Assembly: GCA_963727895.1 (NCBI GenBank)
Contig: CAVSHT010000004.1
Location: forward strand, 96,001-160,000
Direction of reading: 5' to 3'
Source of the DNA: an uncultured Methanosarcinaceae archaeon
GTDB lineage: Archaea; Halobacteriota; Methanosarcinia; Methanosarcinales; Methanosarcinaceae
Length of the DNA: 64,000 bases
Position numbers: made by a program. Position 1 is the first letter of the stretch; every line of letters begins with the position of its first letter. Positions 38,101 to 47,100 of this stretch are shown in pieces.

Positions 38101-41100
38101 TTACATTGATTTTCTTGCCCCAGGAATTGTCACAATGGGAATTCTATTTACAGCTGTCTTTTCTGGTCTGGAGGTAATATGGGACAGGCAATTCGGTTTT
38201 CTCAAGGAAACTCTGGTAGCTCCTATTTCAAGAACAGAGATCATGATTGGAAAAACGTTTGGAGGTGCAACTATAGCTATAATTCAGGGTTTGATTGTAC
38301 TTAGCCTAACGTATATTCTTGGATTCAGAATTTCCAGTATAAGTAGCCTTGTTATTGGGTTAATTTTTATGTTTTTGATAGCCATTTTCTTTACAGGAAT
38401 TGGTCTCACTATGGCTTCACAAATGAAAGATATGCAAGGGTTTCAGATGATATTGAACTTTCTAATTATGCCTACATTTTTCCTTTCAGGAGCTTTATTT
38501 CCTCTAAAAAACTTGCCTCCTGCAATTTATTTTATAAGCAGGATCGATCCGCTTACTTATGGGGTTGATGGTCTGAGAGGAGCAATCGCGGGTATAAGCA
38601 CTTTCAGTATCTCCAGCGATTTGGTGGTAATGGGCTCATTGTCAATTATCATCTGTTTGATAGGAACAATGTTTTTTTCAAAAATGGAGGCATAAGCCTC
38701 TAAGCATTACTTTCTTTTCATTACTTTAACATATTAAAGAAGGCGAACTAAATGAGTGAAATTGACTGGGATACTCCAAAAAGTGATACAAATTATGATC
38801 AGAATTGTGATCATCAGTTTCAGAAAGGTCAAACACTGATAGAAATGATGAAAATAAAGAGCGGAGATTCTGTACTTGATATGGGCTGCGGGACAGGATG
38901 GCAGGCTTTAAATGTCTCGGGAGTTCTCGGGCCAGCTGGCAAGCTTACGTGTATTGATCCTTCCTCATATCGTATAGAACTTGCACGGAAAAAGTTTGGC
39001 GTTGATTCTCTCAATAATGTCCGTTTTCTTGTGGGGCAGACTGAAAATCTTAGTAAAGTACCTGACAACTCAATCAACCATGTCTATTTCTGTTCTTCAT
39101 TTCACTGGATTGCTGACAAGAGAACCGCTCTCAGTGAAACATATAGAGTGCTTCAATCAGGGGGCAGTGTAGGAATGACAACGCTTGATAGAGACAGCCC
39201 TGATATGATGAGAACGCTTGTAGATCCTATTTTAGCAAAATATAACATTACAAGGAAATATAAATTACACAGGGAAATAAGCAGAGTAAATGCACAGGAG
39301 CTCCATAAACTTCTGTCGGAAGCCGGTTTTACCTTTATTTCAATTGAACCAAGGACGATTTCAAGGAATTATCGTTCACCTGAAGAATTTTTGAAACACC
39401 TGGAAGAAAGGGATAGTATGAGGAGTTTGTTGAAAGATATCCCAGAAAAAATTAAGGAAAAGATCAAACAGGAGATTTACGAAGAACTCACTAAGATCCA
39501 AAAACCGGTCTTTGCTGAGTTTGGTATTGTTACATTGTTCGCAATTGCAAAAAAACTAAATGAGTAATGTTAATGAAAAATAGGTGATTCATCTTTAATC
39601 AGTTAATGTTCATGTCCACAGACCTCCTGCAGTAACACTCAATGAAACTCCTGAGGAATTCCATATTTCCATTGGACTTCGATAGTTAAATGATGAATGC
39701 TCACGTAAATTGTATCTATTTTTCGCAATCACAAGAAAGTTCTGAAAATCATTAAAAGTTGCATCATTTAGCCTCTTGACTATAGATGTTGATTTGTGTT
39801 TACAAATATGTCCGAAGATTTAAATCAAATTTACTGCAAGAGGTCTGTGGACATGACCCCTAGCAGATGACCAAAACTAGACTTTCAGGTTTCTCCACAT
39901 TGTCTTATGAGCTTAGCACAACTGCATTACTGCTGATGTACCTCATAATAGGATTACTCTAAATGGAAAGAGTAGCACAAGGCAATTTATGACATAACTT
40001 CTTGTCGCACTTACAGAACTTTTGGTACATTATCACAAAATTCTAGATTTTTGGAACTGAGCCTTAAATCAGTGCCGTTCAGACAATGAGTAAATTACAT
40101 AATGAGATGCAAATTTAGTGTTAATTTCTATCGTTTTTAGTTCTTTTATGACAAAATAAGGTGAAAAGAGGTCCTTTATTTCGGACTCCGAAGAGAAATA
40201 CAATGTTGTTCCCAGCTGAGTTTTCCGGAATTTACCCTTGCCGCCGAACTGTGGATCTTTCTTAGAAAAACAGACCGAAAGGTACTGTGCTCTTGGTTTC
40301 AGGAGATTATATACATTTTTTACGTATTTTTTTCGGTCTTCCGGAAAGATATGGTGTAAAAATTCCCAGTCATAGCCAAAGTCAAAAGTCTCTTTTATTT
40401 CATGCAAATCACCGAGGAGATCAGCGACAACAAACCTGCACCTGACTCCCCGTCTTTGTGCGTTTTCAGTAGCGATCTTTATTATGGTAGGGGAATTATC
40501 GATACCGGTTACCTCAAATCCCTGACCTGCAAGGTATATCGCATAGTTGCCTGCACCACAACCAAGATCAATAGTCTTGCAGGGCAGGATTTTTCCACTC
40601 TGTACCAATTCAACAAGTGCATCTGGAGGTGTCTCACTATTCCAGGGGATTTTATCAAGCGGTACCTTCTGGTAGATTTTGTCGACGTCGACATATTTCA
40701 TACATGCTACTTCCGGAAATGATTGAGTTCTTATTTTTTTACCAGAGATTGCCGGTACATTGTCTCAAGCTCGGCAAGGTCATTTATCGGTGTAGGGATT
40801 ACCCGTGAATCATTCTCCATAATCGCTTTTGCAAGGTTTCGGAAGATTTCTGCTTCCCGTGAATCTGGAGCATATTCCACAAGCTGTTCTCCCTTCTAGC
40901 TCACAAGCCTGAATCAAAGGACTCCTGGGGACAAATTGGACAAATGAGGTTCCCAGCTTTTTTGCAAATGCAGGAATAAATGCATGCTCGAAAGCCTCAT
41001 CACCGTTGCTGTTGCAAATTATCCCGGCAAGACCTGCATCTCCTCGCTTTGCAAGACGCTGCACGGCCCGCGCAATATTATTTGCAGCGTATATACTCAT

Positions 41101-44100: not shown

Positions 44101-47100
44101 GAGCGGGATTCCACGGATCTCACAGCACTCCCGGGTCCTGACAAAGTCCGACATGTAGAGTGGGCATCCGGTCGGACCGTGGACAAGAGGAACAACATGA
44201 CGAATCCCGCTGATGACGTAGTAAGAAGTAAAAAACTTGCACATAGGAGCATGCGAAGCCTGCAGTTTGGGAATCATCTCGCCCGTTTCTACTTTTTTCA
44301 GTAACTGCTGCAGGTCACCGTGAAAAACTATGGAATTATTTTCCGAATTCACACATTTTTCAATGTTGCATGGAGATAAATATTTTCCTAAATTTGGTTC
44401 AGTGTAGTTGCAGGGGATGTGATAAATTTGGTTTCGTTGCAAAATATCTCAGAATAAGCCTGTAAATCTATGGATAATGAACAAAAGTTAAAATATCCAA
44501 AGAAAAGGAGTATATGGTTCTTACACCTTTTTTGCGTTGAATATAAGGGTTATCGAAGAAAACTCTTATATTCTCATAGTCTTTGGAATTGATTTTAACT
44601 CAAACACATAGCAAGCTTTAACCGATATTGTTTTTATTTGTTGAGTAAACAAACTCAACGAATTCGCTAGATTTTATTTATAAATGATCTAAGATATTAG
44701 TGAAAAAAAGTGGGAACTGTAAGGAAGGATATTACTCTTTGCTTGTTAATTTAAGAATTTCTTCTATTATCTGGTTTTTTATGCTGGTTGTTACTCTCTT
44801 TATTTTCTTCCTCTTCCATTTCTTTCCTGAATTCTATATAATCCCTCTCGACTTCTTCTATCTTGTTTTCCATTTGTGACCTCCATCCAATATTAGCAAG
44901 TCACACTCTATTTATATATTTTGGAACAATTTAGTATTTTTTTGAGTCGTTTAAATTCTCCTTCTAATAATTCCCCATTCTATGAGCCTCTTTTCTATGT
45001 ATCTCATTTCATAATCTGTAAAAGAAAGGCTATGATAATGTCTAATAAAACATCAATATGACCAAAATGTTGACTAGACTTTGGGAGATCCCATAAACTC
45101 AATTACCGGAGCCAAAACGAATATGATTAAAAAAGGACGGCTTTGATACTTAAACATAGTTATATACTATTAGAAAGTATATTTCTTCATTAACTGCCCC
45201 AGATGCAATAGTTCCAGTCACAAAAAGAATGGTATAGTTGGTGGTCGTCAACGCTACAAATGCCATGATTGTGGATATAACTATACAGTAGAGCTAAAAT
45301 CAACTGCTTTTTCCGCCTCTGTCAAAAAACAGGCTTTACAACTTTACCTTGAAGGATTGGGCTTTCGTTCAATAGGACGAGTTTTAGGGGTGAGTCATGT
45401 TTCTGTCCAAAAATGGATAAAGAAATTTGGTCAAGAGTTAGAGGCTCTAAAAAGCGAAAATGAGATATCTATTGTTGAACTGGATGAGATGCACACTTAC
45501 ATCGGTAACAAAAAAAAATATTGCTGGATCTGGATTGCTGTTGATAGAGTTGGGAAAAAGTTCATCAACTGCTCTTTTGGTAGCAGAGGAACGGAAACTG
45601 GAAAACTACTCTGGGAAAAATTGAAGAAAAAAGAGATTGGAGAAGTGATGACAGATCACTGGAGAGCATATGCAGAGTTTCTTCCAGAAAAGAATCATAC
45701 TCAATCAAAAGCAGAAACATTTACAGTTGAGGGATATAACAGCATATTGAGGCACTTTCTAGCAAGATTAAGAAGAAAGACAAAGTGTTATACGAAGAGT
45801 ATTGAAATGCTAAAGTACTCGGTTATTCCATTGATGAAATACAGAAATAAAGAGTTAACTATGTTTAGATAACAATATCGAATATTTTAATAACCCCCTA
45901 TACATATTAAATTAATTTGAATATTTGATAAGTTGCCAAAAACGATGTGCTAAGACCCAACTGCGTAACTCCTATATTGATGAAATACAGAAATAAAGAG
46001 TTAACTATGTTTAGTTAACAATGCCCGAAAATTTTCTCCTCGCACTTTAAGGCTATAATTGACACCTTTATGTACTATTTTTCCAGGTGATGAGAATGAT
46101 TAACGTTCATGTCCAGAGACCTTCGGCAGTAAATTTGATTTAAATCTTTTGACACAGTCCAGTGAAAATATGGAATTCCTTGGGAGTTTAATTGAGTGTT
46201 ACTGCAGGAGGTCTGTGGACATGAACCTTAACCGATGACCAATGAATCCTTATTATGATTTTTTGCAACAGAACCGATTAAAGCGTTAAATTTGTTTGTT
46301 CTTTCTATTTTTCCTTTATTTTTTCCTGATACGACAATATTTCATTTAGTTATTGGCTTAAAAGGATAGTATATTCAATATTAGGAAAACGCTTATAACT
46401 CCTAAATCGTAACAATTGTGTACATGACACAAAAATTCACTCTTACCATTCAATCTGGAAAAAACAGATTAGGAGAACAGGAAGGATTTGAAAGCATAGA
46501 AATAAAGCCAGGGGATACCCTCTCAATTGTAGGCCCTACTGGCTCAGGAAAATCAGCTTTAATTAATGATATTGAAACTCTTGCACAGGGAGATACTGTA
46601 ACAGATCGGAGGATTCTAATCAATGACGAAGAACCTCCCGAATCCTTTGTACGGGAGCCAGCCTTCAAACCGATTGCCATGATAACCCAGAACACACGTT
46701 GTCTGGCAGATCTCTCAGTCGAAGCATTCCTGCTGATGCATATAAGAGCAAGGCGACCTGGTAGGGAAGACCTGCTTGACGAGACAATGAATCTTGCAAA
46801 TACTTTTACAGGTGAAGAGATCAGCCTTAAATGTCGTATGAGCGGCTTATCTGGAGGGCAGACCAGATCGCTTATGATTGCAGATGCACTTGTAATCGGC
46901 GATACTCCGATACTTCTGCTTGACGAAATCGAAAACGCAGGCATCTTCAAAGACCGGGTCATTCAGTCTCTTCAGGGAGGAAACAAGGCAGTTATCCTTG
47001 TAACACACGACCCTTATCTTGCTCTTACGGCAGGCAGGCGCATAGTGATGAAGAATGGGGGAGTTGCTTCTGTGATCGAGCCGGCAGGACAGGAGCAGCA

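Follow-up and report, generated by a model that had tools for sequence, protein, structure and literature searches.

A free-standing nitrogenase-like operon, nflDKH, related to the VnfE and VnfN proteins of V-nitrogenase clusters

It is debated whether nitrogenase maturases descend from catalysts or catalysts from maturases (PMC8890362 versus PMC9447857), and earlier work passed over the deep VnfEN branch for its length and ambiguity, with its cluster not known (PMC12176620). A 64-kb window, the whole stretch of DNA analyzed here, from an uncultured Methanosarcinaceae archaeon carries a free-standing relative of these proteins, raising the question of what such an operon does and how it is related to the V-nitrogenase scaffold. 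This relative splits the deep VnfEN branch and provides an outgroup for it; with 37% identity between them, nfl and VnfEN would offer a natural pairing of catalyst and scaffold. The operon would also add a NifB-linked reductase, present in the operon around AAM05042.1 of the genetic model Methanosarcina acetivorans, which encodes a close NflK and where function can therefore be tested.

The nflDKH locus and its neighbors

Four genes, all on the minus strand, span positions 40069-44442 of the window, and their PF00148, PF00142 and methyltransferase domains agree with the operon proposed there by the first-pass annotation. nflD (42926..44352) encodes a nitrogenase-like alpha subunit with PF00148 in both halves; a base missing from a G run at about 43763, relative to 5 of 5 relatives, divides it into ORFs 44442-43723 and 43735-42926. 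Its start is probably the GTG at 44352, since homology to the relatives begins there in the alignment, which corrects the operon edge (44442) formerly taken as the start. nflK (41587..42945; PF00148) is intact and encodes a beta subunit of 452 aa. nflH (40731..41579), for an Fe protein of the NifH family, matches PF00142 in pieces, being disrupted by three insertions of one base each, near 41535, 41118 and 40884, in comparison with relatives, whose intact nflH has the Walker A motif and both cluster cysteines. The frameshifts reported earlier in nflD and nflH thus amount to four of one base each. Public sequencing runs were searched for reads of the strain and none contained it (best share 0.18), while contigs of approximately 90%-identical relatives in three runs, which are not the same strain, are free of the four indels wherever covered. 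The fourth gene (40069..40701) encodes a class I SAM methyltransferase of 210 aa, TPMT/TehB-like, matching PF13649 (E 2.5e-19), PF05724 (E 1.5e-11) and PF03848 (E 1.1e-8). Contigs of one metatranscriptome cover portions of all four genes; contig presence is not equivalent to transcription.

The core of the system is D-K-H, with nflH present at 73 of 80 loci. The methyltransferase, previously considered part of the unit, is accessory: it is near D-K-H in 20 loci and missing from 60, so that its description as a minority neighbor stands with a revised count (formerly 17 of 79). Genes for vnfD, vnfK, PII or nifX were found at none of the 80 loci. Flanking-ORF clustering and a Pfam scan (126 of 199 selected neighbors) showed nifB and the methyltransferase to be the only partners that recur, with no conserved client gene near nflDKH and, among the 126 scanned, no recurring transporter or sulfur gene that would give a clue to the substrate.

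The link to nifB was likewise recorded earlier as a minority feature (6 of 79) and now extends to 11 of 80 loci, only in non-methanogens. nifB lies directly 3' of nflH in 11 of 12 Chloroflexota/Bathyarchaeota loci in which the contig continues, and in 0 of 64 other loci; methanogens are all reported to possess a NifB, encoded elsewhere (bioRxiv 2023.10.20.563283). The HPC, CxxxCxxC, AGPG and TxTxN motifs are present in the nfl-linked NifB, with HPG in place of the usual ExRP. Of 7 Chloroflexota genomes, MAGs whose completeness is not reported, 6 contain only two PF00148 genes and none has a nitrogenase-level match; in a further set of such genomes the adjacent nifB is the sole strong NifB match (4 of 4). 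A common origin with vnf-linked nifB was tested by tree and not seen. Both nfl nifB and NflH form separate old clades with no relation to vnf-linked nifB or VnfH; NflH branches outside Nif/Vnf/AnfH (support 0.978), its best profile matches being the CfbC and NifH models, far below cut-off.

nfl genes occur in 21 of 401 Halobacteriota genomes and also in bacteria. Many carriers possess a full nif cluster as well, and in one archaeal family of soil and peat nfl is near-core. Within Methanosarcina (10 of 59 genomes), nflDKH appears to have arrived later, by horizontal transfer, because NflD is 90-91% identical among Methanosarcina, Methanoregulaceae and Methanotrichaceae, the genes are confined to that minority of genomes, and the GC content of D-K-H is 48.7% against 37% in the window.

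Kinship with VnfE and VnfN

NflK is 38.9% identical (327 bits) to VnfN of the same genome, in agreement with the 39-40% given before, versus 20-24% (60-86 bits) to NifK, NifN and VnfK. An intact NflD orthologue shares 34% identity (330 bits) with VnfE and 30%, over a partial alignment only, with NifE (122 bits). Against early-diverging VnfEN in general, identity is 34-42% for alpha and 30-43% for beta subunits (pairwise median 37-38%); 112 alpha and 84 beta columns are kept in 90% or more of the sequences of each family, and NflD and VnfE have indels in common that are absent from NifD, NifE and MarD. Solved relatives are as distant by sequence as the first pass had reported (E 1e-32 to 1e-34), the closest now at E 6e-34 to 1e-32. 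An AlphaFold model of NflD (pLDDT 80.9) confirms, as a prediction, a nitrogenase-like fold; its top Foldseek match is MarD (9fmg_A; E 4e-25, TM 0.69, 20% identity) with NifD barely behind, so that this search does not separate the two kinships. A search of the ESM Atlas returned PF00148 clusters only.

The careful trees and clade tests that had been left unfinished were completed under a site-heterogeneous model; they reproduced the grouping of VnfE with NflD and VnfN with NflK, away from NifE and NifN. Support for the clade that joins the Methanosarcina proteins encoded beside vnfDGK to NflD/NflK is 100/100 (alpha) and 96/89 (beta; 99/94 including a third lineage), and reaches 1.0 in a joint tree of 192 sequences that included the nearest full-length 50%-cluster representatives. 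Monophyly of VnfE with NifE is rejected (AU p 2e-57), as is that of VnfN with NifN/K (p 0.004), which bears out the proposal that Methanosarcina VnfE/VnfN are not NifEN paralogues. These comparisons support free-standing nflDK as their nearest relatives among those with known gene context. In the joint tree the VnfEN branch itself sits among free-standing Group IV systems; labelled DPOR/COR, Nfa, Isr and Group VI sequences were outside the sampling of the trees, and Mar-like rows are named by gene context, not by assay. The NflDK and VnfEN families are reciprocally monophyletic (100/100) and sister, neither nested in the other. This sister relation, also claimed before, is blurred on the beta tree by the third, Theionarchaea-type lineage, that of the Theionarchaea proteins MBU7032237.1 and MBU7044238.1, which falls outside or beside NflK (p 0.107 in the test of it as NflK's nearest kin) and whose gene context was not found in viral contigs or 301 Thermoproteota genomes.

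Long-branch attraction as the source of the grouping has next to no probability: both stems are long and further long branches were flagged in the same trees, but plain identity (the 37-38% median against 20-30% to all else) and the common indels contradict it, together with common motifs, the site-heterogeneous model and the concordance of both subunits. Just as little credence is left to the version of the first-pass annotation in which Methanosarcina itself recruited VnfEN from nflDKH, suggested by the presence of both in this genome at 39% identity. With bacterial sequences added, Methanosarcina VnfE/VnfN lie inside a clade with proteins of Nostoc, Clostridium kluyveri, Paenibacillus and Methanothrix (63-69% identity), and a pairing of NflD with only the Methanosarcina VnfE is rejected (AU p 6e-4), which refutes that version under the tree model used. 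Just 2 of 59 Methanosarcina genomes contain both systems whole, and nflDKH looks recently acquired there. Since VnfEN are this similar in Nostoc, Clostridium and Paenibacillus, their recruitment would predate the spread of vnf. One VnfEN kind that branches at a distance from NifEN has been described before (Garcia 2022; PMC8890362); as far as searched, the novelty lies in a free-standing relative equipped with a dedicated Fe protein, and a literature search by locus tags found no mention of the operon. A scaffold unrelated to the NifEN-derived kind is used by 47 of 80 sampled vnf loci, which is relevant to V-nitrogenase engineering.

Cluster ligands, proposed function and alternatives

NflD (69 sequences) and NflK (80 sequences) show no variation at the six P-cluster cysteines or at the Cys275 equivalent: the four alpha cysteines in 69/69 NflD and 59/59 VnfE, the three beta cysteines in 80/80 NflK and 169/169 VnfN, with NflK of this locus keeping Cys27, Cys52 and Cys111 at the P-cluster positions. 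In the alignment NflD lacks equivalents of the cofactor ligand His442, of Arg96 and Gln191/His195, and of the Arg428/His429 pair of MAR, though Cys270/275 are kept; the Arg-His cluster motif of methylthio-alkane reductase is described in section 8.2.2 of PMC13474568. An invariant pocket histidine is common to NflD and VnfE. At the position of NifD Arg359, NflD keeps an Arg, in contrast to the Lys of VnfE and NifE.

On balance, nflDKH is probably a Group IV-type two-component system of the deep VnfEN lineage, an ATP-driven reductase of a substrate other than N2 that uses a NifB-made cluster. NflH and an NflD2K2 tetramer would constitute a self-contained system in which ATP hydrolysis by NflH drives electrons to a P-type cluster, bound by the six cysteines at the D/K interface, and from there to a homocitrate-free [8Fe-9S-C]-type cluster on the Cys275 equivalent, with the pocket histidine as candidate second contact. 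The substrate would be a small molecule; that it is an S, Se or Te compound, whose product the TPMT-like enzyme methylates in some methanogens, is a doubtful guess. By parsimony, we infer recruitment from an nfl-type system to VnfEN: an ancestral DK pair may have lost its own H, entered the vnfDGK cluster once and then gained the Cys-bearing tail, the package spreading across phyla; Methanosarcina would have received VnfEN with vnf, and nflDKH at a later time, through a separate horizontal transfer. Tentatively, with a probability somewhat short of even, nflDKH is a living stand-in for the deep VnfEN ancestor and a NifB-cluster reductase of a class not described before, with a third mode of cluster holding (neither His442 nor MAR His429); VnfEN would then be the second case in which a catalyst was independently turned into a nitrogenase maturase, the Fe protein being lost and the tail gained.

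A precedent for the ligand set of this model is the L-cluster of NifE, reported to be held by a single cysteine and a weak ligand (PMC13031127). The single-cysteine pocket would suit a maturase no less than a catalyst. NflDKH may alternatively be a maturase or insertase that tailors NifB-co and delivers it with NflH to a non-nitrogenase client, VnfEN having only switched client. This is rather unlikely, despite the NifE-like interior ligand set (the Cys275 equivalent only), the reported need for the sister VnfEN in the V-nitrogenase of Anabaena (PMC8406325) and the occurrence of L-type clusters outside the nitrogenase family (PMC12176620). No conserved client gene lies nearby, NflD has neither the Cys25-type surface ligand of NifE nor the VnfE tail and carries the Arg described above, and patchy presence in methanogens with occurrence in bacteria implies that nflDKH is not itself the universal essential NifB client. 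An escape of nflDK from VnfEN, followed by the gain of a Group IV Fe protein, is improbable; an unrooted sister relation gives no orientation and only VnfEN has a known function, but the reciprocal monophyly, the third lineage beside or outside NflK, the old separate clades of NflH and nfl nifB, and the position of VnfEN among free-standing Group IV systems all count against it. Still less probable is a weak alternative nitrogenase comparable to Group IV-A Nfa or to L-cluster-loaded NifEN, which reportedly reduces some N2 (PMC13474568, section 2.5). The full P-cluster ligand set, the own Fe protein and nifB would suit it, whereas equivalents of His442, the Group IV His429, Arg96 and Gln191/His195, as well as PII and nifX genes, are missing, and many carriers already possess the full nif cluster.

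Comparison with known systems

nflDKH falls within Group IV in the broad sense (a NifD homologue that is not among the true nitrogenases and is accompanied by a dedicated NifH homologue; PMC13474568, section 2.4), as judged from the tree and nflH; the cysteine sets given in that review for subgroups IV-F, V and VI differ from the full set of nfl. It is placed outside the NifD/NifK clades and below the family cut-offs of Nif/Vnf/Anf (Groups I-III), and the score on DPOR models is 108 bits, where the cut-off is 490. CfbCD (Group IV-B) is also a nitrogenase-like reductase of methanogens, but CfbD is a single short homodimeric subunit while nfl has distinct D and K genes, and the cfbCD of this genome is on another contig (C13). 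NifEN and the NifEN-derived, proteobacterial-type VnfEN resemble nflDK in the one-cysteine interior site and the lack of His442; they differ in identity (20-30%) and in the Cys25-type surface cysteine preceding the first P-cluster cysteine, absent from NflD and deep VnfE, and nflDK does not descend from the NifE/NifN clade. MarHDK (Group IV-C) likewise combines free-standing H, D and K genes and a nifB homologue with six P-cluster cysteines and Cys270/275. It is distinguished by its Arg428/His429 motif and separate clade, whereas nfl has the order D-K-H and no ABC-transporter or methionine/cysteine genes alongside.

The closest system is the early-diverging VnfEN of Anabaena/Nostoc, Clostridium, Paenibacillus and Methanosarcina, named 'nitrogenase associated protein E/N' by NCBI, with the same D-then-K order, seven ligand cysteines, histidine and indels. 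These VnfEN genes lie behind vnfDGK without a dedicated Fe protein, whereas nfl has its own nflH and is near vnfD/K at 0 of 80 loci; VnfE has a Cys-bearing tail of about 40 residues, whereas NflD has none and NflDK bears extra cysteines of its own. Unlike VnfEN, nflDK occurs in genomes without any nitrogenase (MAGs, completeness unreported), and the finding of nflDKH in genomes that lack vnf speaks against a need for it in FeV-cofactor assembly.

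The nfl operon and its frameshifts

The operon lies on the minus strand and comprises nflD (44352, the probable start, to 42926), nflK (42945-41587), nflH (41579-40731) and a gene for a TPMT/TehB-like methyltransferase (40701-40069); in a family-model search of the window none of the four reached an NCBIfam cut-off. As the first-pass annotation had stated, nflD and nflH are frameshifted in this copy: by comparison with five close relatives, nflD has a single deletion and nflH three insertions. Differences from the closest relative are mostly silent in both genes (107 synonymous to 28 non-synonymous codons in nflD, 65 to 10 in nflH), and the four-gene operon is intact in another genome (G109). 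The frameshifts are probably, if not securely, a local consensus error, which is suggested by the bias of the indels to insertion; recent decay is a possible alternative source. In the same assembly the Mo-nitrogenase (nif) cluster (C3:205500-213300, L106) carries approximately 13 single-base insertions, compared with 2 split genes among 46 outside nif and vnf. One deletion occurs in anfK (C7:51353, L108) and a methylthio-alkane reductase (Mar)-like pair is shortened to one ORF (C18:10244-11654, L107), while the vnf cluster on C11, unlike these, is free of frameshifts. For damaged nif and anf genes in an assembly with an intact vnf cluster there are two readings: errors of local assembly, or a methanogen in which V-nitrogenase alone is kept intact, which would be unusual. 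At 45357-45872 and 46418-47949, upstream of nflD, lie an IS1-family transposase gene and, after it, a GC-rich ABC-ATPase and CobW/HypB-like GTPase pair; a paralogue of this ATPase occurs near the Mar-like cluster on C18.

Phylogenetic position of VnfE and VnfN

A FastTree analysis drew on 192 sequences of alpha and beta subunits, with the 150 representatives nearest NflK at the 50%-identity level included wherever they were full-length. In it VnfE grouped with NflD (support 1.0) and VnfN with NflK and a third beta lineage (1.0). The latter, formed by two Theionarchaea proteins (P0004, P0280), P0155 and P0283, is 35-38% identical to both NflK and VnfN. IQ-TREE LG+C20 trees were built from hand-picked subsets (42 alpha and 39 beta rows) excluding fused and short proteins, and long outgroup branches were flagged in them. 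VnfE with NflD received 100/100, as did each family separately, and VnfN with NflK 96/89, or 99/94 with the third lineage. Placing VnfE with NifE was rejected (p 2e-57), as was VnfN with NifN/NifK/VnfK (p 0.004); NflK with the third lineage was not (p 0.107). The proposal that VnfE and VnfN belong with NflD and NflK, away from NifE and NifN, is thus upheld. NflH forms its own clade (0.978) apart from VnfH, and the nfl-linked nifB likewise (0.999) apart from vnf-linked nifB.

The recruitment of VnfE and VnfN had been attributed to Methanosarcina, which proved mistaken. An E/N pair follows vnfK in all 12 Methanosarcina vnf clusters fetched, and with the Methanosarcina VnfN as query, proteins of Calothrix, Nostoc, Clostridium kluyveri, Paenibacillus and Methanothrix were retrieved at 62-69%; on a Nostoc plasmid the pair lies directly 3' of annotated vnfD and vnfK (75% and 66%). 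Among the best 80 of 162 metagenomic vnfD loci, a set biased to the Methanosarcina query, 47 carry this deep-branching type, 10 a NifEN-like pair upstream on the opposite strand, and 23, many of them short, neither. Because of these bacterial matches, the Nostoc plasmid and the two locus types, VnfEN is of two kinds, the deep one being cross-phylum. Methanosarcina VnfE alone with NflD was also rejected (p 6e-4). E rows of the upstream type fall inside NifE, beside Rahnella, in the 42-row alpha tree; from this position and Garcia 2022 (PMC8890362), rather than named records, the NifEN-like kind is taken to be a 'proteobacterial type'.

Two further loci were observed. A vnfD-G-K-E-N cluster (L191:2372-9401) in a 1.4 Mb Halobacteriota genome outside Methanosarcinaceae (G491) has no nifH or PII genes beside it, and its VnfE and VnfN are the earliest-branching deep-type sequences among those sampled. 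Another genome (G125, L242:8157-9806) holds a relic vnfN fragment and vnfX, with no vnfDGK or vnfE adjacent.

Distribution and neighbourhood of nflDKH

With NflK as query, 97 loci were detected in GTDB genomes and 80 of them kept, distributed among Methanosarcinaceae, Methanoregulaceae, Methanolinea, Methanothrix, other Halobacteriota, Chloroflexota (15) and one Bathyarchaeota. The system had been described as free-standing in methanogens and Chloroflexota; vnfD, vnfK, PII and nifX genes were found in none of the 80. The order D-K-H is without exception, with nflD in 76 and nflH in 73 loci, several of the remainder being cut by contig ends. The methyltransferase gene accompanies 20 (16 on the same strand behind nflH, two inverted, two upstream), and its identity to the window copy drops in parallel with that of NflK (56-61%, 65-75% and 80-91% by lineage). 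nifB occurs in 11 of the 80 loci, following nflH in 11 of 12 Chloroflexota/Bathyarchaeota loci where the contig continues and in 0 of 64 others.

Carriers amount to 21 of 401 sampled Halobacteriota genomes, 10 of 59 Methanosarcina genomes and 14 of 24 genomes of one family (f8), including all five that are at least 90% complete; among 401 sampled Chloroflexota the centre genome is the sole carrier. Of seven carriers in Chloroflexota, six possess no more than two PF00148 genes and none shows a nitrogenase-level match, these being MAGs in which absence is unproven; in four other carriers, also MAGs, the adjacent nifB is the sole strong NifB match. M. acetivorans C2A AAM05042.1, annotated as 'nitrogenase associated protein N', is an NflK family member (91% identical to the window NflK over 437 residues, 39% to VnfN), and nflDKH is amenable to testing in a model methanogen.

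Other nitrogenase-like genes were met during these searches. Three records with the titles Acidiferrales or Bathyarchaeia (L042, L046, L068) combine nif and cfbD-like gene sets with a methanogen-type nflDKH, and their titles are probably wrong. In several methanogen genomes Mar-like D/K pairs stand in tandem, two or three together (L198-L203, L210), and some of them align with Cys-Pro where the MAR motif is Arg-His. At the unassigned Halobacteriota loci L204-L209 a single cluster holds two nifH-like genes together with divergent PF00148 genes, three or four in number.

Predicted function and relation to known systems

Equivalents of NifD Cys62, 88, 154 and 275 and of NifK Cys70, 95 and 153 (A. 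vinelandii beta numbering) are kept in both the Nfl and deep VnfEN families. Common to the two are a further cysteine, 18 residues ahead of Cys275, an invariant His four residues before Cys62 and a second invariant His on the loop lining the cofactor pocket in NifD, a position at which two Mar-like rows also have His. In the alignment both families lack His442, the NifE Cys25 site and the MAR Arg428/His429 pair (motif from PMC13474568). A C-terminal tail with two cysteines is found only in VnfE (58 of 59 sequences) and is a candidate replacement for Cys25.

In view of an Fe protein that is intact and of the pattern in which nifB occurs, the simplest reading would have electrons pass from NflH through a P-cluster to a NifB-made L-type cluster, with NifB supplied from within the operon in hosts other than methanogens. 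It is a weaker step that nflDKH may be a catalyst rather than a maturase, as would be indicated by its dedicated Fe protein and by its having neither a client nor a surface ligand. The methyltransferase, the sole hint to the substrate, suggests chalcogen or thiol chemistry.

VnfE/N were placed early, with their cluster given as unknown, in PMC12176620, and labelled '-like' in PMC9447857. Other sources cite VnfEN as essential in A. variabilis (PMC8406325) and regard the vnfEN of M. acetivorans as scaffold genes of the ordinary sort (bioRxiv 2021.06.03.447018). A clade of the nflDKH kind is not named in sections 2.4, 2.5 and 8.2.2 and further passages of PMC13474568, nor is Vnf mentioned in the excerpts of PMC13753814; general background is found in PMC3733012, PMC3306737, PMC4284476 and PMC9012536. 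In the literature searched (main text of open papers) VnfEN was nowhere described as having a free-standing sister, and nflDKH members may stand unremarked within published Group IV trees. The relationship is real and phylogenetically solid, and half of it was already known; the novelty lies in a NifB-linked D-K-H system, so far uncharacterised, which provides a root for the deep branch of VnfEN.
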